Virus record (IMG/VR): IMGVR_UViG_3300042937_001207
Strand: one strand, 5' to 3'
Length of the DNA stretch: 60,576 nucleotides
DNA from: an uncultured virus (IMG/VR IMGVR_UViG_3300042937_001207)
Lineage: Duplodnaviria; Heunggongvirae; Uroviricota; Caudoviricetes
The notes beneath the pieces are model-generated. The model searched no databases. It was not told the origin of the DNA and was given only the letters and a program-made list of their open reading frames with translations. The position numbers and the translations under genes are program-made. Shown here piece after piece: positions 34,549 through 58,110 of the stretch (within the stretch, counting starts at the first letter, position 1; every line of letters starts with the position of its first letter).

Positions 34549-34693
34549 AGATATAAAAACTACATCATGAACATGAAGTTTTGGCAGTTCTTTGTTTTTA
34601 CTCAAACCTTTGAACTTATTACCAACACTAAGAAATCCTTTGGCAATGCTTCTCTCCACTTTATCCACTTCCTTGACTACAAGAGATACGGGC

Positions 34694-41131: not shown

Positions 41132-41362
41132 ATGATTTACTCAGGCGATACCTGGCGTTCAGCACGTGCGTGCATTAGTGCAAATACGCTCACATTCTTC
41201 CCGCGCAATCGCAAACAGCGCCTTGAAGCTCTTGGTTATTGTGGAATTTGCCTTGTTCGTGGAGAGTGCCTCAAGTATGCTCTTGATAATTCAATTGAGT
41301 TTGGCATCTACGGGGGAAAGACTGAAGACGAGCGAAAAATCTTGTTGCGTCGCAGGCGATGA
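41132..41362 (+). CDS. whiB: WhiB-family transcription factor
   Basis: [32 protein letters not shown]. Confidence 0.92.
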
Positions 41363-43296
41363 ACGAAAAACGACTCTGGCTAAATGACGACCATCTAGTA
41401 ATCGACTTTCCATACGACCCAGACGAGGTCGCAGCGATTAAGAAGATACCTGGGGCTAAATGGGACAAGCTCGCCCGTGTTTGGCGTGCTCCTGCTACAT
41501 CTCTTTCTGAAATTAGAGATTTTGCAATCCTTCATGACTTTGAAGTTGAAACATCAATAATGCTTTTTGATGAACCAAAACGATTGAACAAGTCATTTGG
41601 CATGTGGAGCGACGATATCTGGATTTATCTTGGCTTTAATTACGACCAAGTAAAAGTTCGCTCAGTAAAACAACTCCCAGGTGTTACATGGGATTCAAAG
41701 TCAAAAGCATGGAGAGTGCCTAGAACGGCTGTTCGTGAAGCAATTCAATGGGCTGCAATCTTTAAAATAGATGTACCGGCTGAACTACATCTTGATGCGG
41801 AAGAGTTTGCTGAGGTTAGTAAAAAACGAGCAGATGCATCACGGGCTCATAGTGCCGTGCTGTTAGTGCCAAACATTTCTGGCTCACTACTTCCATATCA
41901 AATGGCTGGAGTCTCCTATGCTCATCAGACAAGAAGGTGCTTCATTGCTGATGACATGGGTCTTGGGAAAACACTGCAAGCATTGGCAACACTTGAGTAC
42001 TCTGCTTCGCTTGGAGAAGATGTATACCCAGCAATAGTTATGTGTCCGTCAAATCTTGTTCTTAACTGGAAGTCAGAAGTAGAAAAATGGATACCATCTA
42101 GAAAAGCAAGCGTTGTAGTTGACCGCTCAACCTTTCCGAGCGAAGAGCACGACATAGTAGTTATTGGGTATGCAAACATAAGCCATTGGGTGAAGAGTTT
42201 AAAAGGTTACAAATCTCTTATTTGCGATGAATCTCACTACCTCAAAACACCAACAGCACAGCGCACAAAAGCTGCAATAAAGATTTCAAAAACAATAAAA
42301 TCTGGTTTGGTTCTATGTCTAACCGGTACACCAGTGACGAACAGGCCAGCAGAGTACGCAAGTCAATTAGACATCATTGGCAGGCTTAACGAGCTTGGTG
42401 GCACCTGGGGCTTCTATAGACGCTATTGCGGAGCTTTTAAAGACAAATGGGGACATTGGAATACATCCGGTGCTACAAACTTAGAGGAACTCAATGAGAT
42501 ACTTCGCTCACTTTGTTACATACGACGCACAAAGGAACAAGTGCTTCCAGAACTGCCAGATGTAATCCATGATAAGCATGTTATTAATCTCTCAGATAAG
42601 CATCGAGCTGAATATAAAAAAGCTGAAGACGATATTGTTGAATACCTTGTTCAGCGAGCAAAAGAGATTGCTTTAGAAATCGGAAAATCTCCTTATTCGG
42701 CTGCGGTTGTAGCAAAAATAAAAGCCGAGTCAAATGTTCACTTGGTCAAACTTTCTGTATTACGTAGGTTGGCAGCAAAAGGGAAGATGGAATCAATTAA
42801 AGAATGGGTGCAGACTCAGGTGGAAGCTGGTGAGAAAGTTGTAATTGCTGCTCACCATCGTGATGTAGTTGACTATTTGGCTAATGAGTTTGGTGGTTTA
42901 AAAATACAGGGTGGGATGGATGTTGAAGATGTTGAGAAGGCAAAGAAGATGTTCCAAAACCTGTCCACCGAAGAAGCCCCTGTAATAGTCCTGTCAATGC
43001 AAGCAGCCAAGACCGGCCACACTCTAACCGCTGCTCAAAAAGTGCTGTTCGTGGAGCTCCCATGGACTCCGGCTGATGTTGACCAGCTCTATAGTCGATG
43101 TCACAGACTTGGGCAAAAAGGCTCAGTGATGGTTACATATGCTATAGCGGTTGACACAGTTGATGAACAAATCTATGACTTGATACAGTCAAAGCGCCAC
43201 ATCGTTAATGCGGCCGTAGATGGTTCGTATGGTGAAGAAAGCGAGTCGTCTAGCCAGCTTGTTCTTGACTACCTAAAACGAGGTTTCAACCGCTAA
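41359..43296 (+). CDS. SNF2-family helicase (HARP/SMARCAL1-like)
   Basis: Two N-terminal F.Y....V..IK.IPG..WD...K.W repeats; ADDMGLGKT, DESH, LTGTP, GHTLTAA, W.P....Q..SRCHRLGQ. Confidence 0.92.
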   Translation: MNEKRLWLNDDHLVIDFPYDPDEVAAIKKIPGAKWDKLARVWRAPATSLSEIRDFAILHDFEVETSIMLFDEPKRLNKSFGMWSDDIWIYLGFNYDQVKVRSVKQLPGVTWDSKSKAWRVPRTAVREAIQWAAIFKIDVPAELHLDAEEFAEVSKKRADASRAHSAVLLVPNISGSLLPYQMAGVSYAHQTRRCFIADDMGLGKTLQALATLEYSASLGEDVYPAIVMCPSNLVLNWKSEVEKWIPSRKASVVVDRSTFPSEEHDIVVIGYANISHWVKSLKGYKSLICDESHYLKTPTAQRTKAAIKISKTIKSGLVLCLTGTPVTNRPAEYASQLDIIGRLNELGGTWGFYRRYCGAFKDKWGHWNTSGATNLEELNEILRSLCYIRRTKEQVLPELPDVIHDKHVINLSDKHRAEYKKAEDDIVEYLVQRAKEIALEIGKSPYSAAVVAKIKAESNVHLVKLSVLRRLAAKGKMESIKEWVQTQVEAGEKVVIAAHHRDVVDYLANEFGGLKIQGGMDVEDVEKAKKMFQNLSTEEAPVIVLSMQAAKTGHTLTAAQKVLFVELPWTPADVDQLYSRCHRLGQKGSVMVTYAIAVDTVDEQIYDLIQSKRHIVNAAVDGSYGEESESSSQLVLDYLKRGFNR

Positions 43297-43455: not shown

Positions 43456-43995
43456 TTATTTTAGCTCCAGCATGAATGTGTCTGATTCCCACATAATACC
43501 AATGGCTGCGTAGCCAATTACATCCATAACATTGTCTTGGATTGATTCATTGTTGGGTGTTGAGTTGTTCTCTATGAGGTTCTCAAGTCTGGCAACTTTG
43601 TCATGAACTCTGACCATAAGGCCGGCTCTACCGAAACGCTGAATGTTTGAGTGGCCGTAGTCATGTTGCTTCCGGCACAAAACCTCATGCACATAAGGAA
43701 TGGTTAGATTGAATCCAAGAGAATAAGCCAGCATGTTTGCAAGCCTTCCTATTGACTTCCATTCACTTGAAGCATTCTTCTTGTCGTCGTAAAACATCTC
43801 ATTGATAAAAATATCAAGATGGGTTCGGAGCATCTTTACGGTTGCGTTGCTCGATTCGTCAAAAGAAGAAACCAGCCTCAATATAGTGTCACCAACAAAA
43901 CTCAATTCTTCATCTGCAGGAAGTATTTTTTTTAGTGCTAGCAATGATGCGTCATTCCATGTTCGTGGCAATTCACTAACTGATTGTTGATTCAT
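43456..43995 (-). CDS. Nucleotide-modification-associated domain protein (DUF1599-like)
   Basis: RKQHDYG..NI..GLMVRVHDKVARL..NESIQDNVMDVIGY. Confidence 0.75.
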   Translation of the reverse strand: MNQQSVSELPRTWNDASLLALKKILPADEELSFVGDTILRLVSSFDESSNATVKMLRTHLDIFINEMFYDDKKNASSEWKSIGRLANMLAYSLGFNLTIPYVHEVLCRKQHDYGHSNIQRFGRAGLMVRVHDKVARLENLIENNSTPNNESIQDNVMDVIGYAAIGIMWESDTFMLELK

Positions 43996-45367
43996 CCAAT
44001 ACTCCTTTAAAAATTTTTCCAAGCCATTCTGCTACTGGTGCAGCTACTCCGTTACCGGTTTGCTTATACCTAGCTGTATCGGGCTGTTCTTTTCCGTCTG
44101 CACGCCATCTGGTGTGGTCCACGGGCCAGCCCATCAAAATCTCACATTCTTTTGGCAAAAGGCGTCTAACCACCATGTTCTGCAACACCCCGGTTGACTG
44201 TTTTGTACCAGCCCTGATTGCATGATGTATGCCGCCGTCAATAAGCTTGTCGTTGTATTCATCGTAAGCAATTGCATCAATGACAAGGTTTTCACCCCTG
44301 CTTGACGGCACTCCACCGTCGCCACCACTACGAAGTGTCATTGCTATCCCGTCATTGAGTTCTTCGTTTTGTGCGACCATTGGAGTGTTTAGGCCACCAG
44401 TGCCCATAAACGCAGTCAATGTGTTGATGGTGTCGCCCTGCAAGCGAACCCCATCCTGTCTGTGCGGGTGGAACACTATTGGTGAATCATCGTTTTCGTA
44501 AGCAACACTTGGTGACTGCTGTGTAGCTTTGAGTGTTGGTGAATGGTCTGTAAATACATTTGCATTTGAGCCGAATTGGGTGTCAAAGGAATAAACTTCT
44601 TCATTTGTAACAATTGTTCCAGGGCCTTTTGCGTCACGGGCTCGCAATGTTAGAGCTTTGTCGGTTTCTTGCCATTTAGCAAAACCGCTGTTCTCAAATG
44701 CTAGGACTCCCTGTTCGCTACTGCTTCCAGTGCTTGACGAAGCTTTTCCGGCAACTTCTTGTTTCGCCTGTCTGCCCTTCTGAGAATGCCTTCGCATGCC
44801 CTCTTGGACAGGTAGTAACGGGAGGGGACTTCGCTCTGCGGCACCAATATCGTATGTAGCACACACGAAGATGCGGCGCCGTCGCTGGGCGATTCCGTAG
44901 TACTGAGCATCAAGGATTGCCCAGTCAAGCGCCACGCACCCTGATTTGGCCATTTCATCGAGGACGACCCCAAAGTCAGCACCCTTGTTGGAAGTAAGTG
45001 CTCCGGGAACGTTTTCCCAGATTGCGAGTCGTGGGTATTGTCCATTTGTTGCATCACGCATCTCCTTGATAATTCTTATTGCTTCATGAAATAAACCAGA
45101 GCGCTCACCAGAGAGGCCTTTTCGGACGCCAGCCACGGAGAGGTCCTGGCACGGGCTACCGAAGTTTATGCAGTCAACTGGTTCTATTTCATTGCCTTTA
45201 ACATCTCTAACATCAAGATATTTAGGGATGTCTGGCCAGTGTTTCTTAAGTATCTGCTGGCATGCGGGGTCCCATTCAACTTGCCACCGGCATTGCCAGT
45301 CGGCGGCTTCAAACCCAAGGTCGAAACCGCCGACTCCGGCGAAGAGGCTGCCAAATGTCAGGCTCAG
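43976..45367 (-). CDS. DNA (cytosine-5) methyltransferase, probable CTG start
   Basis: The frame extends upstream of the listed ORF to give motif I SLFAGVGGFD, VEWD, motif IV GSPCQDLS, ENVPG, QRRRRIF, and motif X RYKQTGNGV; the CTG overlaps the ssb TGA. Confidence 0.9.
   Translation of the reverse strand: MSLTFGSLFAGVGGFDLGFEAADWQCRWQVEWDPACQQILKKHWPDIPKYLDVRDVKGNEIEPVDCINFGSPCQDLSVAGVRKGLSGERSGLFHEAIRIIKEMRDATNGQYPRLAIWENVPGALTSNKGADFGVVLDEMAKSGCVALDWAILDAQYYGIAQRRRRIFVCATYDIGAAERSPLPLLPVQEGMRRHSQKGRQAKQEVAGKASSSTGSSSEQGVLAFENSGFAKWQETDKALTLRARDAKGPGTIVTNEEVYSFDTQFGSNANVFTDHSPTLKATQQSPSVAYENDDSPIVFHPHRQDGVRLQGDTINTLTAFMGTGGLNTPMVAQNEELNDGIAMTLRSGGDGGVPSSRGENLVIDAIAYDEYNDKLIDGGIHHAIRAGTKQSTGVLQNMVVRRLLPKECEILMGWPVDHTRWRADGKEQPDTARYKQTGNGVAAPVAEWLGKIFKGVLDESTIS
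44701..45057 (-). CDS. Nested alternate-frame ORF inside the methyltransferase (beta-subunit-like)
   Basis: 118 aa with L..IL....VPSRYYLSKRACEGILRRA.RR.K.LP..L..ALE; GGAG RBS upstream. Confidence 0.6.
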   Translation of the reverse strand: MMQQMDNTHDSQSGKTFPEHLLPTRVLTLGSSSMKWPNQGAWRLTGQSLMLSTTESPSDGAASSCVLHTILVPQSEVPSRYYLSKRACEGILRRADRRNKKLPEKLRQALEAVANRES

Positions 45368-45843
45368 AAAGGCTCTTCCCCGAATGAATCAAAGTCATTG
45401 CGGGTTGTAGCTGGACGAGCGCCTGCTCGTGCTGGTGCTTTCTGTGCAGGACGAGCGTTGACAGGGTTGCCAGAAGCATTCTCTGCCTTTGCTTTGCGCT
45501 GCAATGTCTCAATGTTGCGAACAGAAATACCGATTTCGTCTGCAAGAACGTTCACTGCTGAACGCTTCTTACCTGTTTCTTTGTCGTCCCATGTTTCTTG
45601 CTCAAGACGACCGGTCACGGTCACACGAATTCCCTTTTCAAGAACTCGTACTGCATCTTCGGCAAGGTTTCGCCATGCGATTACATTGAAGTAGGAAGTC
45701 TTTTCCTGCTTTTCGCCCTTGGCGTCTGTCCAGAAGTTATTGACTGCTACGGAAAAAGAAAGCTTTCCTGCTCCTGAGTCAAAATAACGGATTTCTGGGT
45801 CCGCCGTTAGGTTCCCGGTTATTGTTACTGGCGCTGATGACAT
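45364..45843 (-). CDS. ssb: Single-stranded DNA-binding protein
   Basis: ITGNLTADPE, VIAWRNLAE, VTVTGRLEQ, acidic tail EEPF; AAGGAG RBS. Confidence 0.96.
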   Translation of the reverse strand: MSSAPVTITGNLTADPEIRYFDSGAGKLSFSVAVNNFWTDAKGEKQEKTSYFNVIAWRNLAEDAVRVLEKGIRVTVTGRLEQETWDDKETGKKRSAVNVLADEIGISVRNIETLQRKAKAENASGNPVNARPAQKAPARAGARPATTRNDFDSFGEEPF

Positions 45844-45912: not shown

Positions 45913-46131
45913 ATGGCTACTAATCCTTTTGAAATAAGGCTTTCGTTAACCAATGCGATTGCCAATTCGCTGTTTGATATTGCTTTTGACCAAAGCTTAT
46001 CCGACGCTGAGCTTAAACAGCAACTTGAAGACTACAAAGATGTTGCGGCAATGATTCTTGAAGACCTTGGATGTGAAGTCCTTGAACTCAAAGAAGGAAA
46101 GATGATTTGCTCCTTCAGTCCACAAAAATAA
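45913..46131 (+). CDS. Small hypothetical protein
   Basis: 72 aa; leaderless TAGGCT-N6-ATG. Confidence 0.65.
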   Translation: MATNPFEIRLSLTNAIANSLFDIAFDQSLSDAELKQQLEDYKDVAAMILEDLGCEVLELKEGKMICSFSPQK

Positions 46132-46133
46132 TA

Positions 46134-49100
46134 CGGGACTAGTAAGTGACAGGAGTAAATTGAAGCGCAGAAGAAGCGAAGCGACTGGTATTCCAAAGAA
46201 ATACGGAAGGCCCCATTTACTCCATTTACGAATGGCTGTAGGCCGAAGGCCGTAAGCCTGAAGAGCGAGCAGCGTTAAATGGATAAATGGAGGGAGTATT
46301 GCTTTGGAATGCGAGCAAGCAATTTCGCCGTGGACTTTTATTCAAATATATTCGGGACTAAAAACTGGGTAAGCATTTGCGTACGAAGTCGAAATGCTGC
46401 GCAGCTGTTTAGGGTGTTGTGCACGCCCAGCGTGCAAGCGAAGCGTCATAAGCCCTAATAGCGAAGCAACAGTTCGACTGTATGCAATGCGGTAATTGTG
46501 ATGAGACTAAATACGGGACTAATAACTGCTGGGAGCAAACAGCGAAGTTGCTTTCTTTTTGAGCATGGCGGGAGCGAGAAGGTTCCAGGAGCGGAGTTAT
46601 TTTACGATTAAAGAATTTAAGGGAACAAGCGAGGATGCGAGCGTTGAAGGACGAGAAGCTTGAATGCAAACAGTAAAAGTTCGGGACTAGAGACCATTCA
46701 AGCGGTGAGTCGTTTGAGGCGAGCTGCGATGCGCAGTGTACTTAAAGGATTTAAGAGTGAGATAACGAGCATTCTGGAATTTCGAGCGTTCGCCGAGTGA
46801 GAAAAGAAGCACGAGCACAAGTTGTGATTTTTGTAGCAAGCGAAGCTTGCGGGACTATAGAGAATGTTTTATAAGCAATGTTTAACAAACAGCTTTACGA
46901 AGTGAAACCGGGCAGCTGCTGAAGGTTGGTGGTAGCTCTTTTGCGGACACCACCGGAAGCATCTGCTGGTGAGCGAGTAGGCGTGGACTTTTATTTATCA
47001 AAAAAAAACGGGACTAATAACCACATGGTTAGGCATGTGCCTGTTTTGAAAAGGAGTGGAGCGACTGTTGGTTTTTAAAGTTTACGGAAGAGGCTCTTTT
47101 TGTCTTTTTTGAGCGAGGCACGAGCGAAAGCGACGCTTGCGGAGCGGTAAAAAGAAAAAAAGAGAGGGAGTAAAATTTAACAAACCATGAAAAACGGCAC
47201 TGCCGGGAGTTGTTAGATAAATTATTACGGGACTTACTTCTATAAGCCAACAAGCATTGCGTCTTTCTGTTCGATGTGAATGAGCGTGCTGGTAACGAGG
47301 TACGAAGTTACGCAAAGCGAAAGAACAACGAAAAAGAAAACGCATGCGGTAGCTTTTATTTGAAACGCATCGGGACTAAAAACCAACAACAACGAGCATT
47401 CCGAACGAAGCCAGAGTAGCCGCCGAGGCTTCCCGTAGTTTGCGTAGGGAGCCTGGCGTCTACCTGGCAAGCGAGGAGGCGAAGTGAAGCTTTATGTTTG
47501 CCTTTACGGGACTAGTTTTTGCGAGCGAGCAAGCATTGCATTTTCGTTCGACTCGGAGTGAGCGTGCTGTTCCGAGGTACGAAGGAACGCAAAGCGAACG
47601 TAGGTCGAAAAGAAAATGTATGCGGTGAGTGAGTACTAAGAAAAACGGGACTTATATGTTGCAGGACTGTTTGACGAGTCGCATAGCGACGAAGTGTTAT
47701 TTTGTGTACCCAGAAGGAGGAGTAAGGTATGCGTAGGGAGATGCGAAGCAACGAAGTGCGACAGCAATTCGGCGCTAGCATAAGCGAAGCGACCTTGCGA
47801 CCGAACTTCTGGGGTAGCAAAATACACGAGAAGCGTTGCGACGAGGCGAATGTCCGGGATGTCGCAATCAAAGATAGATATTTATTGAAGTCTCGGGACT
47901 CAGTAGTTGTTGAATCAATGATGTATTTCTTTCCTTCAAACAGCTTAGACAGATAAGAAATCTAGGCGATTCTAGAGAAGCGAAGCGAAGCTACGAATCG
48001 ACGGTTACCGGGTTCAAAAGCGGAGGGTTGTTGAGACCGAGCAGCGGTCGAAAACATCCGTAGCGTTGAACTCGGTAAAGATTTCGTATATGGATAAGCG
48101 GGAACCATTCATTCAATGTCCGTACGGGGCTGAAAACCTAAACAGTTATACCCGTTATCCGGGATGAGGAAGCGTACTTCCCACGGCCCCCCGCTCAGCG
48201 AGCACGAAATCATTTTTGATTTCGATGCCTCGCTCCGTGGGAATTCGCTGGTGCCAAAGTTGTTAGATAAATCTGCACGGGACTTGATAACAAGATTTTG
48301 TAGCACCACGGGTGGAGCGATGACTTGAGTGCGAGTATCGCTGTAGTGGAGCGGGTAAATCGATGAAGCTAGCGAGCGATTTTTGTGCAACAAAATGAAG
48401 CGAGCGTTGCTGAAGAGATTTCTCGCGTAACGGAAGTGGACGAGCGACTCAGTCAGAGCGTAACTCCGTTGGTGGTGCAAAATCTGGTGAGCTTTATACA
48501 GCTTTCTACGGGGCTTAAGAACAAATCCGGGCGTTCGTTTCTTTCTGTGAACCAGAGGTAGTGAGCAACGGTCAAGCCTCTTGACGAAGCGAAGGCGATG
48601 CAGCGCAATCGGTTGCGTCGGCTCGCTAAATGAGTTAGCGATGACTAATCAATCATCTGTCGGATAATCGGGACTAGAGACTTGATGCCGGGAAGAAGCT
48701 AAATCATTTAGTGATGCGTAAGCAACGATTGAGCTGACGGAGACGAGCCAGAAGTCAAGGGCTTGCAGTTGCGAACGGTCTCTGGAGAACAGAAGAACGA
48801 ACATGGTAATTAATCGGGACTATAAAGTTCTTTCTTTTATCAGTAAGGGTTAGTTATCTCGACCGAGCGAGTGTGCTGCGACGTTTCGGTGCGAGGAGTT
48901 CGGATTACTCCGAAACCGAGCATCGAGCGGAGCATCACGTGAGCGAGAGAGAGTAACGGTGGTTGTCCGGTGGATATTTACGGGACTAATAAGTAGCGAG
49001 CAGTTTCTGAGTACGCAACATTCAAAAGCGTAGTGAAGCATTTTCTGGATTGGAGACATCGCTAGGTACACGAAGGAGTGATGTTTGTGTTCGGACTTGC

Positions 49101-50743
49101 CGAAATACCAATCTATTGGTATGAGGTTGGTGGTCCGCAGGACTCACCAATCCGACAAGCAAACTGAAGCGACTGAAGTGTCCGCAGTGATGTCGGAGAG
49201 CCAGAATTGCGAACTTAGCGTTGAATGTGGAGTACTCGGAACGCAAGCGGTGACTGTTATTCAATTACCTACGGGACTAAAGAGTCTGAACAAGAGCGCT
49301 CTTCTGGGGCTATCCAGTAGCCAAGCGCAGCCTCGTGCGTGCGTGGGCAGCATGCCCTTGCGTGCACGGGCGAAGCGGGCGGTTGGATAGAAACAGAAAG
49401 TGCGTCTACCGGAGTTGTGTTCTTACTTATTGCGGGACTAGTGAATAGCGATGTTTCTCTTTTTGCGCAAGAAGCCTGCGGAGCGAGCAGTTCCTGAATC
49501 GTAGCCATGGCCGAGGTGGACGAATGAGCGATGTTTGTTGTACGGGCTTGACTACATATCGAAGCAGGATTCGATATGTAGTTTGGCGGTTCGTAGAACT
49601 CGCCAATCCGGGAAACAAACTGAAGCGATTGAAGTACCCGACGCTATGGCGGAGAGGCAGGATTGCGAGAGTAGCGAGGCTGTTTGCGGGAAAAGGAACA
49701 AGCGGGGATAGTTATTCAATAATCAATCGGGACTAATAAGCGTGCGCATTTCGCGTAGGAAACGGAGCTCGTGACGTAGCTTCGTGGAGCGCGGAAGTTC
49801 CTTCAAGCGAACACGAGCGGAGCACGAGCGGTGTTTCCGAGAGAATGCGGTAACCAAACAAATTACTAGGTCAATGTTATTAAGGTCGGGACTAATTACC
49901 AATTTAGGCAAGTAAGCCATTTCATTGACTGAACAACCGTGAGCGAAGCTTTCCCAGGCCGAGGCACGAGCGCCGGGAAGCGGAGCGGTCGGTAGTGAAG
50001 TCATGAATGGCGTCGGTTAGTGCGATTGGTGGCTGAGCATGGCGTAGAAGGCAAGCGAAGTACTTGCCGACGCGTGATAACGCATCGGTGCACCGAAGAC
50101 GAGCCGCTTGTCGGCAGCGGATTCGAGTGCATACGAAGCGAGCCTGCGAAGCCGTGCTGTGACACCAAGCAAGCACGACAGTTGTCATGGGGGCTTCGGG
50201 ACTAAAAAGTAATTACAGGTAATCAATATTTCCGGGTGTTGAGACATTTCATCGCGCAACCAGCACCGAAGCGGAAAAACTGCTTGTAGCGAAGCGGAAA
50301 GCGTTTTGTAGCGGTGGTGCAGGTGGAGCGTGAATGTCGACAAAGCGAGATAAGACCGAGCCTTGGTGGAGCGAGGAACCCAGGTGAAGCCAAGACGAAG
50401 TCTGGCGTAATCTGGGCTGCGAAGCGGAGCCAGTGTGAGGGTGAAATTGAGCGTGGATTGTTATGTCGGTCATCGGGACTAATAAATAACGATTGCGGCT
50501 GTCGAATAGTTATTTCATCCGCAGAACCACCCGTAGTGAGAAAACTGATGAGCACATTTATGGGCGAAATCGTTTTCGAACGGGGGGTGGTGAGCGGTGA
50601 ATAACGTCAAGCGCAATAAAACTGAGCCCAAGGTGGAGCGAGAAGCCGGGCGCTGCCACGCCGAAGGGTGGCCGCGTCTGGATACGAAGCGCAACCTGAG
50701 GCGAGGTTGCAATGGAGCAGGGACTGTGATTAGAGTCGGGACT
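46134..50743 (+). repeat. Non-coding array of 24 co-oriented CGGG(A/G)CT motifs separated by 136-310 bp structured units
   Basis: CGGGACT at 46134, 46353, 46514, 46682, 46850, 47009, 47228, 47371, 47507, 47646, 47894, 48278, 48669, 48815, 48981, 49272, 49433, 49728, 49887, 50197, 50474 and 50737; CGGGGCT at 48125 and 48509; long inverted repeats in the units examined; no credible CDS. Confidence 0.92.
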
Positions 50744-50806
50744 GAAAGACATGCAGCAGCAGGGCTGTTCTACCTATTAGTATCTCTTTCGCCAGGATGG
50801 AGAAAA

Positions 50807-51040: not shown

Positions 51041-51162
51041 GCCCCGCCCGACTTCTTCGCAAGCCATCTCCAGGCAATAAAATAAGCCAAACCCCATACG
51101 GGACTCCAGACCGGTTTTCCCGGGGTTTTCAAAAGCAAAAAACAAATGACGGTGGCGGATGA
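51040..51162 (+). repeat. Tripartite intergenic element, copy 1
   Basis: AGCCCCGC at 51040, CGGGACT at 51099, ATGACGGTGGCGGATGA at 51146. Confidence 0.8.
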
Positions 51163-51218
51163 GAAATATTCTGCCTTGGGGGTTGCAAGCCGCAAGTATC
51201 CTCGCTACTATTCACCCC

Positions 51219-51428
51219 ATGCAAACCAAGCGGATTGAGCAGCTCGCAGTAGGGAACATCTTTACTTGGGCTTTTCACGAGCACTATCGGGTAACTGAAA
51301 TCAAAGCACCGACACGCAGCAACGGCAGCACTTATCTGCTCAGCTATGTCGGTCTAGAAACTGGAACCAAAGTTCTTGACCGCAAGATGCCTAAAAAATC
51401 AATCTGCGAATTCATCAAAGGGGAATAG
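51219..51428 (+). CDS. Hypothetical protein
   Basis: Promoter TTGCAA-N17-TACTAT-N7-ATG. Confidence 0.6.
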   Translation: MQTKRIEQLAVGNIFTWAFHEHYRVTEIKAPTRSNGSTYLLSYVGLETGTKVLDRKMPKKSICEFIKGE

Positions 51429-51430
51429 CA

Positions 51431-51601
51431 ATGGCTAAGAAACCACTTTACAAAAAAACAGTTATTTCAGGAAAGAAGTTCCGCAAGGCGTTGTACGAGT
51501 TTCTGCCTACAGCAGACATCGAGCACGACAACGAGGGCCAGGTAATTATTTACACAGGTCTCACCGAGGGAAACGGTGACAACTACGTACTTATTGACTA
51601 G
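51431..51601 (+). CDS. Small hypothetical protein (56 aa, not in the ORF track)
   Basis: MAKKPLYKK..DNEGQVIIYTGL; AGGGGAA RBS. Confidence 0.55.
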   Translation: MAKKPLYKKTVISGKKFRKALYEFLPTADIEHDNEGQVIIYTGLTEGNGDNYVLID

Positions 51602-51649
51602 AATAAAAATCACCCACTAAAAAATCAATTACTAAAAAAAGGAAACATC

Positions 51650-52126
51650 ATGAAAAGCAATTTAGAGCTGACAGAAGCTGCAACAGAAATTTTCAATGAC
51701 TTGGCTAACTGGCCGGGTCTTACAAAGTCCACGTGCCATATTTTCAAGAGCCGTGACGGGCAACTGGTGACACTTGGTGTCTACGGTGATATCTATGTTG
51801 GTTTGGAAAACATCGCCAACGAGACCGACGAAGAAACACTTCACGACTTCGAGTTTCTTGGAGTTGAAACCTCTGGCTGGGCAGCTCCTATTCGGGAAGG
51901 GGGCGACGATGACATCATCCCTAGCAGGCACCCAGAACGTCGTCGAGTGCGTATGTTGAGTGTTATTGACCGGACATGCCGCATTGCTTCGGTGATGAGC
52001 CTTGACGACGACGGAGAAATTCTTACCGACCTTGCAGGGAGTGGAAGCCTTGCTGATGCATTGCGTCTCGTGATGGCAAATGTCCTTGCAGCGGAAAGCA
52101 TCACTGCGGCTTGGGCAACAAAATGA
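51650..52126 (+). CDS. Hypothetical phage protein
   Basis: GWAAP..PS.HPERRRVR..GSGSLADAL; AAGGA RBS. Confidence 0.7.
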   Translation: MKSNLELTEAATEIFNDLANWPGLTKSTCHIFKSRDGQLVTLGVYGDIYVGLENIANETDEETLHDFEFLGVETSGWAAPIREGGDDDIIPSRHPERRRVRMLSVIDRTCRIASVMSLDDDGEILTDLAGSGSLADALRLVMANVLAAESITAAWATK

Positions 52127-52392
52127 GGTTGACACTCACGGTAAGCATGTTCAAGTTCGTTTGGGACGGCGGTCCGTACTGCAACATCTCCCACATCAAA
52201 GCTCCCTTGAAGCCGTTTACACAAATCCGGCTATGGGACATCGAGACAGCAAAAAGCATGATTGGAGAAATTGGGCAGCAGGGCACGGCAGAGCGTTTTG
52301 CTGTGAAGTGCAACGATTGGATTTCAACCGAAGCTTTTGATTGGCTTCGTTCTGGTGAACTTTCTATTCACATCATGGAGAATGCATCATGA
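52123..52392 (+). CDS. Hypothetical protein
   Basis: ATGA overlaps on both sides. Confidence 0.55.
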   Translation: MRLTLTVSMFKFVWDGGPYCNISHIKAPLKPFTQIRLWDIETAKSMIGEIGQQGTAERFAVKCNDWISTEAFDWLRSGELSIHIMENAS

Positions 52393-52673
52393 GTACAAAC
52401 ATTGGGTATGTGGTCAACAAGTACACGGGAGAAGCCTGTCCACTTGAACGGGTTCTTATTGTTGGCTCGACGGGTGAAGCTTCTGCTTACAGGAAAGACA
52501 ACGGTATTCGTCTTGGAGGTGATAAGCATGTCGTTGTTGTTGGAAAAGACGATACGTCTGAAGGAATGTACAACCACCCTGCGTGGCGAGCAAAAATGAT
52601 GCTTGTTGCCGGCCAGGCTGGCTTGCCGCTCTCTGCCTCGTGGGGAATTATGAGCATGACGAGGAGTAAGTAA
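52389..52673 (+). CDS. Hypothetical protein
   Basis: GGAG RBS; translationally coupled. Confidence 0.55.
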   Translation: MSTNIGYVVNKYTGEACPLERVLIVGSTGEASAYRKDNGIRLGGDKHVVVVGKDDTSEGMYNHPAWRAKMMLVAGQAGLPLSASWGIMSMTRSK

Positions 52674-53174
52674 ATGGGTTACACGCACTACACGGACAGG
52701 CCTGTCGGTAATCATGGAACAGCAGAAATGTTTGGGAAGCTTGCACTAGATGCAAAGCTGATTTGCGAGCACGCACAATCCATGGGCATTCGCCTGGCAG
52801 GACCTTTTGGAGAGGTCGGAACATCACCTGAATTTACCGAGGGTTATTTTGCTTTCAATGGTGAGGACGGCCCTGACGGTGATTTGTCGCACGAGACATT
52901 CCGGTGGGAAGCAAATCCCGTTCAGCCTGAGTGGCGGCAAGACGAGTTGTTCTATTTTGACTTTTGCAAAACAAATCAGAAACCGTACGATGCGGTAGTT
53001 ACAGCTATCCTTATTCGAGCAAAAGTAATCTACGGTAAATTGCTGCAGGTAAGTTCTGACGGAGAATGGACAGGAGACCAACTGTCGTGGGGTACATGGG
53101 CCTCAGGGAGGGCGCTATATGAAGAGGTATTCAACATCGAGGCTCCTTGCCCGTTCGTCCGGACTGAGGTTTAG
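52674..53174 (+). CDS. Conserved phage hypothetical protein
   Basis: MGYTHY..FNG..HETF..FCKT..KPYD.VVTA.L..VSSDG. Confidence 0.75.
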   Translation: MGYTHYTDRPVGNHGTAEMFGKLALDAKLICEHAQSMGIRLAGPFGEVGTSPEFTEGYFAFNGEDGPDGDLSHETFRWEANPVQPEWRQDELFYFDFCKTNQKPYDAVVTAILIRAKVIYGKLLQVSSDGEWTGDQLSWGTWASGRALYEEVFNIEAPCPFVRTEV

Positions 53175-53442
53175 GTTGTATGCAATCGTCGTCCTGTTGA
53201 TTATTTTCTGCGTATTCAACTAAAAAAGTTTGTCCATCGGTATTTCTTGATGCTTTACTTCTACACAAATTTTGTGTGCGTATAGAAAAAGTTCATCAAT
53301 ACTCTTTGCTCCGGAAATGCTACCGCACGGTAACCATGCTCTCACTAGACGCATCGTTGATTTACTTGTAGTGTCAACAGGGTTGCCACAGAAGTTACAA
53401 GGGACTAAACCTGACATTCAAACACTCTACATCGGAGGATGC

Positions 53443-53646
53443 ATGCCTTACAAGGATAAATCAAAACATTTAGAGTGGCAGCGTGAAAACCGAGAGAATA
53501 CATTCGCCAAAAAGCTTCGCAGGCGTGAATACGAACGAGAACGAAAGCGCCGCAAGAGGCTTGAGCAGATAAATTCTCTTCCTGAACCTGAGCGAAGCAA
53601 AAAGCTGGCCAAACTCAGGGGACCATACTCACGAAGCCTGTTATAA
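53443..53646 (+). CDS. Small basic hypothetical protein
   Basis: MPYKD..; GGAGG RBS. Confidence 0.55.
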   Translation: MPYKDKSKHLEWQRENRENTFAKKLRRREYERERKRRKRLEQINSLPEPERSKKLAKLRGPYSRSLL

Positions 53647-53655
53647 ACACTATTC

Positions 53656-54431
53656 AGCCCCGCTCCGCTCTTCTCTCTGCCGGCCGGTGCGCACGTAGAG
53701 CTATTTAGCCCCGCCCCCCACTTTCCCCCCAGCCCCAGACCCCTAGAAACAACTTTCGGGACTGCGTTTCGCTCTTTGCGACGACTTGATGACGGTGGCG
53801 GATGACGTGAGCTGCTTGCTCGACGTGGAAAAGTAAAACTTCCAGGCCAAAACTTCAGCTCAGCTCTTCGACTGCAGCTCCCGGGAATCAAACCAGAAAG
53901 GCAATTAGAAGCTATTCAGCCCCGCACGCAATCTTCTGAAGCGCGACATCCGGAATCTTGTGATTAAACCCCCTTCGGGACTGCAGTCCTTGAAATCAGC
54001 TTTTGATGACGGTGTCGGATGAGATTTGACTGGGCAGCTCGTTCGACCAGGAAGAAATAAAAAAATCTTTTTGTTGAGGTTGCTTTTTATCGTAGCTCTG
54101 GTTAATATGTCCATACCTACCTAAGGAGCTTCTATGCATAGAAGATAATCAGGGGGGTCGTTCTACCGAAAGGGTGAGCGGCCCCCCTTTTTTTATGCCT
54201 TTTTTCTGTTTCCTTCTCACGGTAAAAATCCTGCAAAAACTTGCAATTCTCTAGGACCCGGGTAACAGCTCATCAAAAGCTAAGTTTCAAGCTTTACAGC
54301 CCCGCCTCCCTCTACGTTGGCATTTTATCTCTTCGATGGCAGCACGAGTCGATGTCTGTGCATAAAACAAACAGCGGGACTGCAGGGTTTGGAATTATTG
54401 GACATTTTTGATGACGGTGGCGGATGACGTG
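53656..54431 (+). repeat. Tripartite intergenic elements, copies 2-4
   Basis: AGCCCCGC at 53656, 53707, 53918 and 54298; CGGGACTGC at 53757, 53976 and 54375; TGATGACGGTG(G/T)CGGATGA at about 53787, 54004 and 54409. Confidence 0.85.
54080..54195 (+). other. Promoter-RBS-minigene-terminator unit (MHRR*)
   Basis: TTGCTT-N17-TAATAT; AAGGAG at 54123; ATG CAT AGA AGA TAA at 54134-54148; GGGGGTCG...CGGCCCCC hairpin followed by a T run. Confidence 0.55.
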
Positions 54432-54614
54432 GCCACCCGGGTAGCTCAGCAAATAATTTTGCTTCGCTCGGCACCGTGGACCAGTTTTTCAGGTCTTGAT
54501 AGTGGACCAGTTTTTCAGGTCAAAAAAAAACAAAAAATGTTTGGAAATGTTTGCCTTGTTGGTTGTAAGCCGCTACTATGTACCCCATCAAGTACATCTA
54601 TTAAAGGAGGGCTC

Positions 54615-54896
54615 ATGGGCCGTAAGTATATTGAAGACCTTATTGAAGAGGGGTGGAGGCTCGACTTGGATTCGCTGATTGCAATCCATCTGTCAAACAA
54701 CCATTATCCAAGTGTTCCAGCAGTCATGGTTAAGCCATGCAAGGAAGCAATCCTCCACGCTGAGCAGGAAGCTCTCCATGAGCTTGTACAGCTCCCAGCT
54801 GGCGTCATGTGGCGCAACCAGACCTCCATTAAGGCTGGAACCCTCATGGACGCATTCCACCTGTGGTCATTCCTTGACCAAGTCCAGGAGGCGTAA
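54615..54896 (+). CDS. Hypothetical phage protein
   Basis: HL..NHYP.VP..MV.PC.EAI..HL..F; AAGGAGG RBS. Confidence 0.7.
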   Translation: MGRKYIEDLIEEGWRLDLDSLIAIHLSNNHYPSVPAVMVKPCKEAILHAEQEALHELVQLPAGVMWRNQTSIKAGTLMDAFHLWSFLDQVQEA

Positions 54897-54898
54897 TC

Positions 54899-55189
54899 AT
54901 GTGGGAAGACGTTGAAAAAGCAACAATGAGCGCACTGCTCATCTCTTGGGATTCATGCCACAAGATTTACCTCGCTATGGACGCTGAACAAGCTGCCTGG
55001 TTTGAGAGGAACTACACGGAAGAAAACAATTCAGTTTCTTTTCGTGGCGCTCCTTGGGAGATGTATGAGAAAATTCAGGAGTGGTGGGATGTCTCATGTT
55101 CACTCCGCTTCATCTCAGCTGTATGGACCGATAACGACAATCCAAATGATGGTTTCATTAGCTTGATTCCACAGTTCGCAGGAGTGTGA
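54899..55189 (+). CDS. Hypothetical phage protein
   Basis: WDSCHKIYLAMD..WW..SC.LRFI; GGAGG RBS. Confidence 0.7.
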   Translation: MWEDVEKATMSALLISWDSCHKIYLAMDAEQAAWFERNYTEENNSVSFRGAPWEMYEKIQEWWDVSCSLRFISAVWTDNDNPNDGFISLIPQFAGV

Positions 55190-55190
55190 A

Positions 55191-55430
55191 ATGACTATTT
55201 ACCATGTAACAAACCGTGAATCTCGCCTGCAGACGCAGGACCGCTACATTGTCTACAACTTGACCAAAGAGCTTCCAGTCGAGTGGAAGTACTGGACCGT
55301 TGACCAACAGGGTTACTGGCTCAACGAAAACGCCGAGTTCATCAGTGACTCTTTCTCCGATGTTGAGCTGGAGGATATGGAAGAAGACACAATCCATATT
55401 GAAAAAGACGAACTGCAAGGGGACCTCTAA
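55191..55430 (+). CDS. Hypothetical protein
   Basis: AGGAG RBS. Confidence 0.65.
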   Translation: MTIYHVTNRESRLQTQDRYIVYNLTKELPVEWKYWTVDQQGYWLNENAEFISDSFSDVELEDMEEDTIHIEKDELQGDL

Positions 55431-55599
55431 TGGACCTCTCCGTTCACAGGGCAATCTTTATCGCAACCAGCCTCTCGACCGTCCTGATGGCCTGGATGGC
55501 ATTTGCCGCCCCGGTTATTACTTCAAAAGAAATTGTTTGGAGTTGCATTATTGCTGGGGCACATGTAGTATCTGGTTATCAGTTATTAAAGGAGTTCAA

Positions 55600-55950
55600 A
55601 TGAAATCAGTTAAATCGGTTGAAGAGTCAAGGGAAGAAGCTGTAGAGCTTTGCTTGTTTGCTGAAAACGATAGCCGTTGTTATCACAACTACTTAGTGCC
55701 GGCATTCAAGAACCAGCAACGTCACTATGACCGTAATCTGAAAAAAGGAGTAGAGAGCAACTTCGACCTTACCGTTTTACTTTTCACGCACACCATGAAG
55801 CTTTGCGCGCAGGAATATTGCCGTCAACATGGTTCGCCAACTGTTAAGTGGCATGAAGTCTTCGATGTGCTTACACGAATTTACGCTGCTCGTCACTTCG
55901 CAGAATATTTCGTTGCAGAATACAACGCAGGAAATCGGTGGGAAATCTAA
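55600..55950 (+). CDS. Hypothetical protein
   Basis: AAGGAG RBS; EL.LFAEND motif. Confidence 0.7.
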   Translation: MKSVKSVEESREEAVELCLFAENDSRCYHNYLVPAFKNQQRHYDRNLKKGVESNFDLTVLLFTHTMKLCAQEYCRQHGSPTVKWHEVFDVLTRIYAARHFAEYFVAEYNAGNRWEI

Positions 55951-56126
55951 TGCAGAAGTATTCAATCAATATTGAGTTCTCTACTGACAGGCCAATGACG
56001 GACGACGAAATTGCTGCCATGGAGACTGCTGTTTATGTTCAGGTATCTGAGCCAAGTGGATTAGACGGCGACAAACGTGCCGGCTTCAACACACGAACAG
56101 TTGAAATCACGGTAAACGAGCTTTAA
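55950..56126 (+). CDS. Small hypothetical protein
   Basis: TAATG overlap. Confidence 0.55.
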   Translation: MQKYSINIEFSTDRPMTDDEIAAMETAVYVQVSEPSGLDGDKRAGFNTRTVEITVNEL

Positions 56127-56175
56127 AGGTTTCTGGCCACTAGGTCAGGATTAACAAATAAAACAAGGAGAAAAA

Positions 56176-56388
56176 ATGCAATCACGCATCAAAAAAGTTG
56201 CATCACGCATCAAGTCAAATCGCATGGAGGCTGGGTTGACACAACAGCAGCTTGCCGATTTCGCTGGCGTGGACCGCAAAACAATTAACCGCATCGAGAA
56301 TGGACACTTCTCCCCAAACATCGAGACGCTTCTTCGTATCTCAGTTGCTTTCGGAGTCAAGCCAGAAAGCCTTCTCGCTGGCGTTTAA
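56176..56388 (+). CDS. XRE-family HTH transcriptional regulator
   Basis: R...GLTQQQLADFAGVDRKTINRIENG..SPNIETL.RI; AAGGAG RBS. Confidence 0.92.
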   Translation: MQSRIKKVASRIKSNRMEAGLTQQQLADFAGVDRKTINRIENGHFSPNIETLLRISVAFGVKPESLLAGV

Positions 56389-56489
56389 TGCAGGCGCTAG
56401 TAGTTCTGCTCATTCTGTGGGTGCTCTTCTTATGAGGAGCACCCACTTTTTGGTTGTGTTACCACTTACAAGTCGTTAGGATTTAAATT

Positions 56490-56717
56490 ATGAAAGAATC
56501 AGTTACTAAACCAACAAAACTCTCAAAAGAGTTCTTAATTGCATTCAATGAGTACATTCTTGCTGGCTACAAGCTCCTGGATGCTTGGCAGTCGCTCGAC
56601 GAGAATCAGCTCGAGATGGTTAACAGCGATGTTTTCCCATTCAACATGTCTTTTGATGAGTACTTAGCCACAATGGCAAGCAACAAGTTTCGTTTAGAAA
56701 AGGAAAGCAGCTTCTAA
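56490..56717 (+). CDS. Hypothetical protein
   Basis: 75 aa; FPFNMSFDE. Confidence 0.6.
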   Translation: MKESVTKPTKLSKEFLIAFNEYILAGYKLLDAWQSLDENQLEMVNSDVFPFNMSFDEYLATMASNKFRLEKESSF

Positions 56718-56935
56718 TGGAAAAACAAGTTATACGCACCTACTCACGTTCTGAACAAGTAGAGATGAACTCTGCTGTAGGAAAAGTTGGTGAAGTTTCC
56801 ATCGAGGAGCTTCTCGTTGGAGTAAAAATCGTAAATGAGCGCTTTCGCTACGGCCATTACGATGTTCTCGTATCTCCGCTCATCGGCAAAGGTGAGAAGT
56901 GGGTTGAATTCCACAAAGTTAGGGTAAAAAGCTAA
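56717..56935 (+). CDS. Hypothetical protein
   Basis: TAATG overlap; RYG..D.LV.PL.G.GEKWV. Confidence 0.65.
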   Translation: MEKQVIRTYSRSEQVEMNSAVGKVGEVSIEELLVGVKIVNERFRYGHYDVLVSPLIGKGEKWVEFHKVRVKS

Positions 56936-57576
56936 AAAGGTATCGTTTTGAGTACTTTTTAGTCTTCCCGGGGTACTTCTCAGCAAAAATTACGCTTTTT
57001 AAATACTTTTACATGTTCTGGCCGTACTTTGTAGCCCCGCTTACGCGTTTTACCGTACTATTGATGTGTTCTGACGGTACCGGATGAGGAGTTTGAAATG
57101 AGTTTTTTAGATGCTTGGCGGCTTCTTGGTGTATTTATTATCTTCGCACTGCTTCTGGTCTCTTTTTTTGGTGGTTAGACGCCGGGCCGGCTTTCTCGAC
57201 CAATACCTACCGAAAAGAGCTTCCGAATGGGAGAAAACCGTACCCGACTTGCCAGGAGGGGGCCCCTGGCCGGCTTAAATACTACATCAAAAAGATTTCA
57301 GTCCCGTGCTTGACCGGATTCTGATTACGCGCTACGGTTCACCGCAAAAAGTAGTACATCGTGATTTACTTCTACGGATGTTAAAACGTTTCCTTCGACA
57401 AAGGTTTACTTCTCTCGCGTGATACTGATTCGGTAGTCAAATCAATGTTCAATAAACTTGGCACGGTGGTTGATGACCTCGTTACTCCTGTAGATAGACC
57501 AGTAAAAACGTTTGTACTACAAAGGGTTTGTGAACAAGCAGTTGCTTTTTTGCAAATGTCGCGCCAGGATGTTTTC

Positions 57577-57963
57577 ATGAATGAAAATTTGTTTGGTTTT
57601 GATGAGCCGGCAGCGCCCCGGGAAACAAAATCAAAGAAATCAAAACGTGCGAAGTCAAAGCTTGTAAGCCCCGCTGAGATTCAACAGGTTTTCGATGAAT
57701 GGCTACGGTGGTGTAAGACAAGCAGCCGGGGTGTTCGGCCGAAGCTTTCAGAAGAACGAAGCATAATTATCGGCTCTGCGATTTATGATTACGGATTAAC
57801 TGATTGTTTGCTTGCGGTTCAAGGCTGCAGCTTGTCTTCTTGGCACATGGGAGAAAATCCAACAGGAACCAGGTACGACGATATTGAATTAATCCTTCGT
57901 GATGCAAAGCACGTCGAGCGATTTGCCGGCCTGGCAGCTGCAGAAGAAGCTAAAAACGATTGA
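57577..57963 (+). CDS. Phage replication-initiator C-terminal-like protein
   Basis: VFDEW..KLSEER..I..AI..YG...C..AV.GC..S.WHMGEN..G..YDDIELILRDA.HVERF; start uncertain (ORF open from 57445). Confidence 0.6.
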   Translation: MNENLFGFDEPAAPRETKSKKSKRAKSKLVSPAEIQQVFDEWLRWCKTSSRGVRPKLSEERSIIIGSAIYDYGLTDCLLAVQGCSLSSWHMGENPTGTRYDDIELILRDAKHVERFAGLAAAEEAKND

Positions 57964-58110
57964 CAAAGCTTTTAAGCCCCGCTACAATTACCGGATGGCC
58001 AAAGATGACGTGCAGATTCAAGTCGGGACTGCACAGTCTGCTGGTATTCAGTTGTCGGGACTGCATACCAGCTGGCCGAGGTCTTTTTTGATGACGGCGG
58101 CGTATGAGCT
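57960..58110 (+). promoter_or_regulatory. Promoter with AGCCCCGC in its spacer, followed by a tripartite element
   Basis: TTGACA-N17(containing AGCCCCGC)-TACAAT; CGGGACTGCA at 58024 and 58056; TGATGACGGCGGCGTATGA at about 58089. Confidence 0.7.

Follow-up and report, generated by a model that had tools for sequence, protein, structure and literature searches.

Few natural single-stranded DNAs (ssDNAs) are known that both have a function and fold in a complex way (msDNA, origins, attC sites and telomeres). DNA mini-hairpins favour GC and CC stems, not CG and GG stems, a preference stated for the GAAA loop (PMC13037366, section 2.3), and the melting data in parts of PMC13037366 and PMC3201870 place the octamer at 76.5 °C as DNA and at 39 °C as RNA. 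GNA triplets in DNA are reported to prefer G as the middle base in duplex GNA/GNA loops and C in hairpin apices (PMC11014236). Motif-linked nicks exist in phage DNA, and PMC11780129 describes their function as still open.

Here we describe an array of structured non-coding units in a 60,576-nt stretch of DNA from an uncultured virus (IMG/VR IMGVR_UViG_3300042937_001207). This whole stretch, referred to as the window, belongs to the genome of a large tailed phage. The array occupies 4610 nt of the + strand (46134..50743) and consists of 23 units of 129–303 nt separated by 24 copies of the heptamer CGGG[A/G]CT (CGGGRCT). A preliminary description, made from the letters of the window alone, had placed an array at 46241..50670 and had proposed that its + strand acts as ssDNA or as an extruded cruciform; the array is real and its true extent somewhat wider, and the separator that organizes it had been missed. 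Four close relatives carry the same array (L034, L036, L038 and L047; ssb DNA 89–91 % identical), and a complete 174-kb relative, G002, whose SSB is 98 % identical to that of the window, was used as a whole-genome stand-in. We consider it a serious possibility, though somewhat short of an even chance, that each unit is a discrete structured ssDNA with ends set by CGGGRCT, the strand being nicked there and displaced.

Selection for folding of one strand

All 24 array heptamers are on the + strand and none is on the − strand. They start at 46134, 46353, 46514, 46682, 46850, 47009, 47228, 47371, 47507, 47646, 47894, 48125, 48278, 48509, 48669, 48815, 48981, 49272, 49433, 49728, 49887, 50197, 50474 and 50737, with a spacing of 136–310 nt. 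They lie in AT-rich linkers (flanks 69–72 % AT, versus 48 % in unit cores) and are largely unpaired in the predicted folds (unpaired probability 0.53 vs 0.36). The array is non-coding in all six frames, in which the longest stop-free stretches are 95–179 codons, and its G skew is about +0.2.

The units are predicted to fold as long imperfect rods or as branched rods that sheared G.A motifs hold together, with G-T/G-U pairs making up 7–11 %. Under a DNA model the folding z-score is −2 or lower in 16 of the 23 units, units 3, 4, 7 and 15 being weak in both the DNA and the RNA model. The helices covary, which shows that selection has acted on the + strand to fold by itself. Among 881 consensus pairs in the alignments of the 21 unit families, 118 have changed on both sides and 120 on only one, and 74 are broken in some row, in a count made without a shuffle control. 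For family 16 two-sided changes affect 26 of 71 pairs, a figure that none of 500 shuffles reached and for which slid structures gave 0–5, the structure having been derived from these same, related rows.

The − strand, on which pyrimidine mismatches would fall, folds worse than the + strand in 21 of the 23 units, and this bears on the second half of the earlier proposal, the extruded cruciform, as well as on a reading in which N4-type hairpin promoters are extruded from supercoiled duplex. GNA-capped hairpins of the kind expected are present, and N4 promoters do have mini-hairpins, according to the relevant part of PMC13037366. The longest uninterrupted helix is, however, only 6–9 bp in 22 of the 23 units (13 bp in the other), the motifs are on the + strand only and no genes lie 3′ of the hairpins. 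Scans of the window and G002 proteins against Pfam, PHROGs and NCBIfam, in which the giant proteins hold long family-free stretches, gave no match to a virion RNA polymerase, and the analogy with N4 is unlikely to hold. We regard extrusion as very improbable. Of the earlier proposal, it is the single-stranded fold that covariation supports, and the loop types described below favour DNA.

Loop and stem classes

Loops closing perfect stems were counted over the array, with expectations from 200 dinucleotide shuffles. On stems of at least 4 bp there are 11 GNA triloops against 1.5 expected (1.6 with trinucleotide shuffles), a number reached in none of the 200 shuffles, and on stems of at least 5 bp there are five against 0.3. 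The equivalent for the reverse strand, TNC, is at background (1 vs 0.7), as are the other triloops (16 vs 14.7); GNRA tetraloops are absent (1.0 expected) and UNCG loops number two (0.3 expected). This tabulation of both strands agrees with the enrichment of GNA loops anticipated in the preliminary description, whose five quoted hairpins, GGCC-GAA-GGCC (46241), CTTAAA-GGA-TTTAAG (46741), GTCC-GCA-GGAC (49133), GGGCA-GCA-TGCCC (49345) and GTTC-GTA-GAAC (49589), are found letter for letter. The many GCGAAGC words that it mentioned are likewise present (13 copies on the + strand and none on the − strand within 46100–50800), and GCGNAGC as a class occurs 21 times on + and once on −, with 3.3 expected. 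Most of these words are not hairpin apices: in 10–14 of the 21 both flanks are paired elsewhere, so that the word forms one strand of a GNA/GNA internal loop and not a mini-hairpin. A C-G pair closes 32 of 50 GNA hairpins.

The same triplets dominate the internal loops. Nineteen of the 25 3×3 loops in the array are GNA/GNA, 16 of them Y[GNA]R on both strands, compared with 0.3 in shuffles and none on the reverse strand; any middle pair occurs in these loops, G.G included. GA/GA accounts for 16 of 35 2×2 loops, and K-turn-like 2×5 loops are rare (two in the array). Throughout the 174 kb of G002, tiles with at least two GNA/GNA loops are found only on the array strand (6 of 30, vs 0 of 2866 elsewhere). 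The outer positions are also the conserved ones, since over 39 aligned hairpin GNA sites the G varies at five, the A at four and the N at 16, whereas for control GNA triplets the figures for G and A are 77 and 90 of 304. The loop at 49133/49589 stays C-GNA-G in all ten rows, with C, T or A as the middle base. Other apices are less constant: at 46241 the loop reads AAA in L036 and is missing from two paralogues, that at 46741 is AGA in L034 and L036, and that at 49345 differs in L038.

A second array provides a comparison that is unrelated in sequence. L050/L051 carry 28 exact CGGGACT sites in the same place beside ssb, bounding units with no homology to those of the window. The L051 array has eight GNA triloops (1.8 expected) and no GNRA loops (1.1 expected), and 12 of its 20 3×3 loops are GNA/GNA. 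Both arrays also obey the stem preference of DNA mini-hairpins: GC-GNA-GC is found 21 times in the window array (7.2 expected) and 27 times in L051 (7.5 expected), and CC-GNA-GG three times (0.9) and nine times (2.1) respectively, with CG- and GG-stems enriched in neither. E. coli rRNA, used as a control, shows the opposite, with one GNA loop (1.4 expected) and three GNRA loops (0.9 expected; 13 vs 3.0 when wobble stems are admitted), and only 4 of 17 3×3 loops in rRNA tiles are GNA/GNA, one of them in a Y..R context. Intergenic spacers on the leading strands of F and ColIb have four and three GNA loops, each against 0.5 expected. The middle base of GNA is G in 29 and C in six internal loops, and G in four and C in seven apices (Fisher's test, P=0.006). 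Because the loops follow DNA rules we read the fold as one of DNA, and consider it quite likely that the folds are used in that form.

Several points weigh against this reading. The positive controls for ssDNA give a weak signal from small samples; pUB110 and pIJ101 give no GNA signal, and Y..R GNA/GNA loops number zero in the plasmid set. rRNA is the sole RNA control, and the related loci are not independent samples. Comparing G with all other middle bases raises the Fisher value to P=0.08, GNA triloops make up just 6–9 of about 40–50 predicted apices, and a looser, structure-free enumeration of loops, which is noisy and counts some twice, did not find GNA/GNA loops enriched in L051 (6 vs 6.7). 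RNA energies fold the + strand equally well, 18 of the 23 units having z of −2 or lower. Tandem sheared G.A pairs and 3×3 loops rich in purines occur in RNA too, as the rRNA tiles illustrate. Motifs of folded ssDNA can resemble those of RNA and are difficult to assign computationally, as noted in the part of PMC5737381 that deals with them. The corresponding explanation is that the units are structured small RNAs, made by read-through from an upstream gene or with the heptamer as a phage promoter or processing site. Covariation, folding of one strand and the G-U content are equally compatible with it, but GNA triloops in place of GNRA are the reverse of what rRNA shows, no match was found to Rfam (none at the gathering threshold or at E≤1), and scans for promoters (4 vs 5.6 expected) and terminators were at chance. 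Small RNAs seem to us rather unlikely.

The heptamer and the B-box

In several relatives the heptamer is confined to one region of the genome: 34 of 35 sites lie within 12 kb in G002, all 45 and all 49 within 28.5 kb in G003 and G007, 18 of 20 within 20 kb in G004, and all 11 within 9 kb in the incomplete G011. The confinement is only partial in G009 and is not seen in G005, G008 and G010, which counts against its being general. The region starts at a replication-initiator-like gene in G002, G003 and G004, and the corresponding gene of the window (57577..57963, +; phrog_16167, E=1.9e-10) marks one end. Outside the G003 region CGGGRC is depleted on both the sense (1 vs 21.5) and antisense (2 vs 11.8) strands relative to codon shuffles, and inside it CGGGRCT is enriched on both (10 vs 1.6 and 12 vs 2.2). 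We note that GGCGCC, CTGCAG, GCGCGC and GGCC-containing words are also strongly avoided outside 28.4–57.1 kb of G003, and these are likely to be host restriction sites.

Sites are divided almost equally between strands in G003 (21 vs 24) and G007 (24 vs 25), and inverted pairs within 60 nt, counted over 14 related sequences, are back-to-back in 88 cases and face-to-face in one. In many clades a heptamer is followed 29–49 nt downstream by GACGGTGGCGKATGA (the B-box). In all 177 cases, from 30 partly overlapping loci, the B-box is on one strand and points toward the initiator-like gene, irrespective of the downstream gene, which is opposite in 75 cases, in the same direction in 44 and absent in 58. 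Because the heptamer is avoided or enriched on both strands and the B-box is always one-sided, the heptamer evidently acts at the DNA level, as a position-restricted site with polarity; an RNase site would not be expected to be avoided and enriched on antisense strands as well, although the back-to-back arrangement would suit promoters of small RNAs.

Array heptamers have no B-box. The first bipartite element of the window, CGGGACT ... GACGGTGGCGGATGA (51099..51162, +), is directly 3′ of the array, and further + strand copies are at 53757..53805, at 53976..54022 (a variant), at 54375..54427 and at 58024..58107, the last having two heptamers, the second in a hairpin loop, and lying between the initiator-like and loader-like genes. 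Over this segment (51099–58107) and in L295–L366 the heptamer of the element is often in a hairpin loop, and relatives have up to 13 copies in 20 kb. Just upstream of the initiator-like gene of G003 (C1:28527–28800) are seven heptamers, three leftward and then four rightward, in an arrangement that resembles an origin or loading site. A scan of genome contigs for heptamer plus B-box returned 18 single matches in unrelated taxa and gave no clue to the host.

The main DNA rival to released ssDNA is that the strand folds in place while transiently unwound by replication, end resection or a helicase, heptamer and fold together being a priming or loading signal for the phage primase-helicase or initiator, comparable to G4 ori-c, RSF1010 ssiA/ssiB, plasmid sso or Frpo, with nothing released. 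It draws on the same DNA-type loops, on the start of the heptamer region at the initiator-like gene and on the constant orientation of the B-box toward it, and back-to-back heptamers would suit primers passing each other. The strand that folds also serves as the template for ssb, as in Frpo. Mini-hairpins are found at the priming sites of G4 and ssiA, and SSB has little affinity for them (PMC13037366, sections 4.1–4.2). Such signals would, however, leave unexplained why there are 23–28 different tandem folds and why solitary units (described below) are bounded on both sides and occur on either strand; the array heptamers moreover lack the B-box, and the promoter scan shows no excess. We consider folding in place possible but unlikely. 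A sponge of heptamer sites that titrates a phage duplex-DNA-binding protein, in the manner of stoperators or iterons and with the spacers secondary, appears highly improbable. Back-to-back pairs are spaced in helical phase (peaks at 24–25, 33–34 and 53–54, about one turn apart), and several helix–turn–helix (HTH) proteins are conserved in the family, but the array spacing has no helical period (P=0.13–0.94) and the covarying, strand-specific folds of the spacers would go unexplained.

Units of the array and their turnover

The 23 units represent 21 families, in an order that is fixed among relatives. Units 1–6 (families 1–6, all units being on the + strand) are at 46141..46352 (with the hairpin at 46241), 46360..46513 (a rod with a C[GCA]G/C[GAA]G loop), 46521..46681 (a weak predicted fold with no two-sided changes), 46689..46849 (also weak, with the hairpin at 46741), 46857..47008 and 47016..47227. 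Unit 7 (family 7, 47235..47370) is missing in L034 and L036; it is followed by unit 8 (family 8, 47378..47506) and by its paralogue, unit 9 (47514..47645), which is 79 % identical to it over 107 nt. Units 10–12 (families 9–11) are at 47653..47893, 47901..48124 and 48132..48277. Units 13–15 (families 12–14; 48285..48508, 48516..48668 and 48676..48814) are missing as a block in L036, and unit 16 (family 15) is at 48822..48980. Unit 17 (family 16, 48988..49271), a branched rod with the hairpin at 49133, and its paralogue unit 19 (49440..49727; 72 % identical, hairpin at 49589) flank unit 18 (family 17, 49279..49432), which has the hairpin at 49345. The remaining units (families 18–21) are at 49735..49886, 49894..50196, 50204..50473 and 50481..50736; the last of these, unit 23, sits between families 16 and 17 in L034, L038 and L047 and is missing in L036.

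The differences among relatives, namely loss of one unit, loss of a three-unit block, an extra unit, duplications and one relocated unit, all involve whole units bounded by the heptamer, and we conclude from these comparisons that gain, loss, duplication and relocation each affect entire units at this site. The array was found in contigs from each of four DNA runs, and units 7–8 are skipped in those of two (X7 and X9), with nine letters fitting either side. These runs were examined as assembled contigs, which show neither ends nor strands; the runs listed as containing the window are lake-water DNA runs and include no RNA run. It counts against a special role of the heptamer in this turnover that slippage between 7–9-nt direct repeats, brought together by a hairpin, would equally give whole-unit loss.

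Whole-unit turnover at the heptamer is also what mobile cassettes would produce if they had no open reading frames (ORFs) and recombined as folded ssDNA, in the manner of integron attC sites or REPINs, with the heptamer as the crossover core, and attC sites are described as acting in folded single-stranded form in the part of PMC5737381 devoted to them. An inverse core, however, is present in none of the 23 units, profile scans found neither an integrase nor an HUH transposase (the host could supply an integrase), the order is otherwise fixed and gain has no polarity. Because the 3′ half of the relocated unit is also present in the unit that it now adjoins, homologous recombination suffices to account for the move. 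Cassettes of this kind seem improbable.

Clades without an array have single structured units of 126–202 nt between two direct heptamers (L320, L321, L366, L409, L414 and L312). They fold on the heptamer strand, which is the B-box strand in L320, L321 and L366 and the opposite strand in L312. Nine such units, partly homologous to one another, contain seven GNA loops (0.4 in shuffles) and none on the reverse strand, and they include a T[GGA]A/T[GGA]A loop. Since heptamer-bracketed single units with the same loop bias occur in array-less clades, the array is, on this comparative evidence, an expansion of a heptamer–unit–heptamer module. Weighing against release as DNA, a co-oriented gene and its stop codon precede the units of the window array, of L051, L320 and L321 and of the mini-array of L312, and read-through there would yield RNA; the first unit of L366 has no co-oriented upstream gene and runs counter to that explanation. 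In L320 (6246–9350) and L366 (7629–11554) there are also segments of ~200–220 nt with two back-to-back heptamers at one end and, at the other, a heptamer in a hairpin together with a B-box; they contain T- and A-tracts and shared short words, lack the GNA bias and represent a second kind of heptamer-bounded unit. A 111-aa protein is encoded beside the L320 units, and no homologue of it was found in the window or G002–G005.

Searches further afield returned little. A metagenome scan gave 123 stretches, 80 of them listed with flanks; among those of the 80 that have at least five heptamers only L210 and L211 match the array, the others being unrelated repeats. One metagenome contig, L129, has an unrelated REP-like tandem array of 88–91-nt repeats that start with the same heptamer and contain GCA-type loops and GTAG words. 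A second viral scan, by heptamer spacing, found nothing beyond the L051 contig, and blastn of the array DNA (E 0.01) against 72,556 plasmids and 50,697 phages gave no match, and hence no likeness to known ssi, sso or Frpo sequences.

A possible mechanism

In all units the folded strand is the one that reads CGGGRCT at both ends. In the scheme that we favour, release as ssDNA, a phage enzyme would nick or cut one strand at the heptamer; if the units do act as DNA, we put this step at slightly better than even. A strand-displacing polymerase that starts at the nick, or the phage helicase as it unwinds the duplex, would then free the strand up to the next heptamer, and the products would be nuclease-resistant ssDNAs of 130–470 nt. 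The near-absence of facing heptamers fits a nick, because synthesis running toward an opposing nick would sever the DNA. That the folds are so varied and turn over fast suggests a role as ligands, and in what is the weakest step they may be decoys or scaffolds for DNA-binding proteins of the host or the phage at an early stage of infection, with ssDNA sensors, SSB-dependent defences, primase and polymerase as possible targets. Nick, release and role are inferences. Taken as a whole, the proposition that a family of large freshwater actinobacterial phages uses a nick motif restricted to its early or origin region to excise up to ~28 different structured ssDNA aptamers as decoys or scaffolds against host proteins, made with no reverse transcriptase and diversifying as entire units are acquired or lost, is a tentative and, in our estimate, unlikely one.

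The enzyme searches weigh against release. Profile scans of the window and G002 found no nickase of a named family and no HUH protein, reverse transcriptase, integrase or DNA or RNA polymerase. When 204 ORFs were scanned for a simple HUH motif, a single protein was picked out, a 1459-aa product of the tail region with no match to an HUH family. The reverse transcriptase profile PF00078 matched none of five records (three complete), compared with 3 of 14 for the control. A DUF932 protein was considered as a candidate nickase; its model (pLDDT 70.7) had no Foldseek match at E≤0.001, and its best VIA Z was 6.3.

Gene content of the window and its relatives

The window encodes a capsid protein, WhiB, SSB, a C5 methylase, an SNF2 helicase, a primase-helicase, ribonucleotide reductase and three tRNAs, and profile scans of G002 add tail sheath, terminase and portal proteins. 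Because WhiB is present the host is presumably actinobacterial. The ssb gene (45364..45843, −; PF00436, E=1.9e-27) is divergent from the array, and between them is a 72-aa ORF of no known family (45913..46131, +; best Atlas score 0.75) whose stop is 2 nt upstream of the first heptamer. The preliminary description had pointed to SSB and a HARP-like annealing helicase as fitting ssDNA. Both an SSB and an SNF2-family helicase (41359..43296, +) are indeed encoded nearby, but the HARP-like N-terminus is only a lead (Atlas score 0.89, with HARP in 21 % of the cluster), and since relatives without the array carry both genes their presence is weak evidence for ssDNA.

No DNA polymerase was found in the complete, myovirus-like G002 genome, which has genes for an initiator-like C-terminal domain, a loader-like protein and a Toprim primase-helicase. 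The DUF932, methylase, SSB and weak NikA-like matches of the window (38003–39022, 43976–45843 and 34204–34731, all −) are reminiscent of the leading-region gene set of the F plasmid. A 207-aa HTH protein (34694–35317, −), encoded far from the large terminase gene, resembles actinophage small terminases in motif only; none of its homologues is named as one. The product of positions 163–14127, 4654 aa long in the window and 5345 aa in G002, combines Clp_N, NUDIX, Zeta-toxin and HTH domains, and further giant proteins are encoded near the portal gene, one being a prohead protease fused to HTH repeats. G002 also has a pair of ParB-like and PAPS-reductase genes (C1:102708–104647), kept in G003–G005 and possibly a DNA modification system, and about a dozen clustered 2OG-Fe(II) oxygenase genes (C1:131697–154953).

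Comparison with known systems

The arrangement described here appears to be new, and the DNA motifs that it uses are already known. With the DNA mini-hairpins d(GCGNAGC) and GNA/GNA zippers (as covered in parts of PMC13037366, PMC3201870 and PMC11014236) the array shares its loop words, GC/CC stems and C-G closing pair; there they are structural motifs, whereas in these phages dozens of distinct folds of 130–470 nt are built from them. N4 hairpin promoters share the short GNA-triloop hairpin, but precede transcribed genes, whereas the array hairpins lie inside longer rods of non-coding DNA. Cruciform-forming inverted repeats are near-perfect and fold on both strands, unlike the one-sided motifs of the array.

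The ssi, sso and Frpo elements (G4 ori-c, RSF1010 ssiA, F Frpo and ColIb ssi) are similar in being strand-specific imperfect stem-loops of 40–300 nt with GNA loops near ssb, and the leading strands of F and ColIb show a weaker form of the loop bias of the array. They are, however, single or near-identical repeats on DNA that is single-stranded in its life cycle, whereas the units here are 23–28 different, heptamer-bounded and in tandem in a tailed double-stranded DNA phage. Integron attC arrays without an integrase (PMC5737381, in part) have in common folded ssDNA units, a 7-bp core and modular gain and loss; the array differs in having no ORFs, no inverse core, an unpaired core and no integrase that could be found. 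Retron msDNA, and CRISPR, TIGR and other RNA arrays, are likewise small structured nucleic acids from compact non-coding loci. They differ in that neither a reverse transcriptase nor a Cas-like or repeat-processing gene was found with the array, whose repeat is 7 nt and whose spacers are structured, conserved and not captured.

In the searchable literature, with most subscription papers outside the search, we found no description of such an array or of a region-confined heptamer, and the two together would be new to it even if the units are RNA or fold in place. The molecule is probably DNA. Should release prove correct, phage products would gain a new class, a library of different folded ssDNAs encoded in the genome. 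The array also supplies natural covariation data on sheared G.A DNA motifs, which until now have been mainly oligonucleotide-based.

Phages with nicked genomes (T5, the phiKMV-like phages, tf and Rembedalsseter), in the sections of PMC11780129 available to us, have in common with this family a short asymmetric motif under strong positional selection, both inside and outside genes. Their motif is on one strand. Ours is region-confined and comes in back-to-back pairs, and in G003 and G007 it lies on both strands; its presence on both strands weighs against nicks at the heptamer, which in our case are inferred. Those sections do not report structured spacers between nicks. The array thereby offers a testable use for the motif-linked nicks of such phages.

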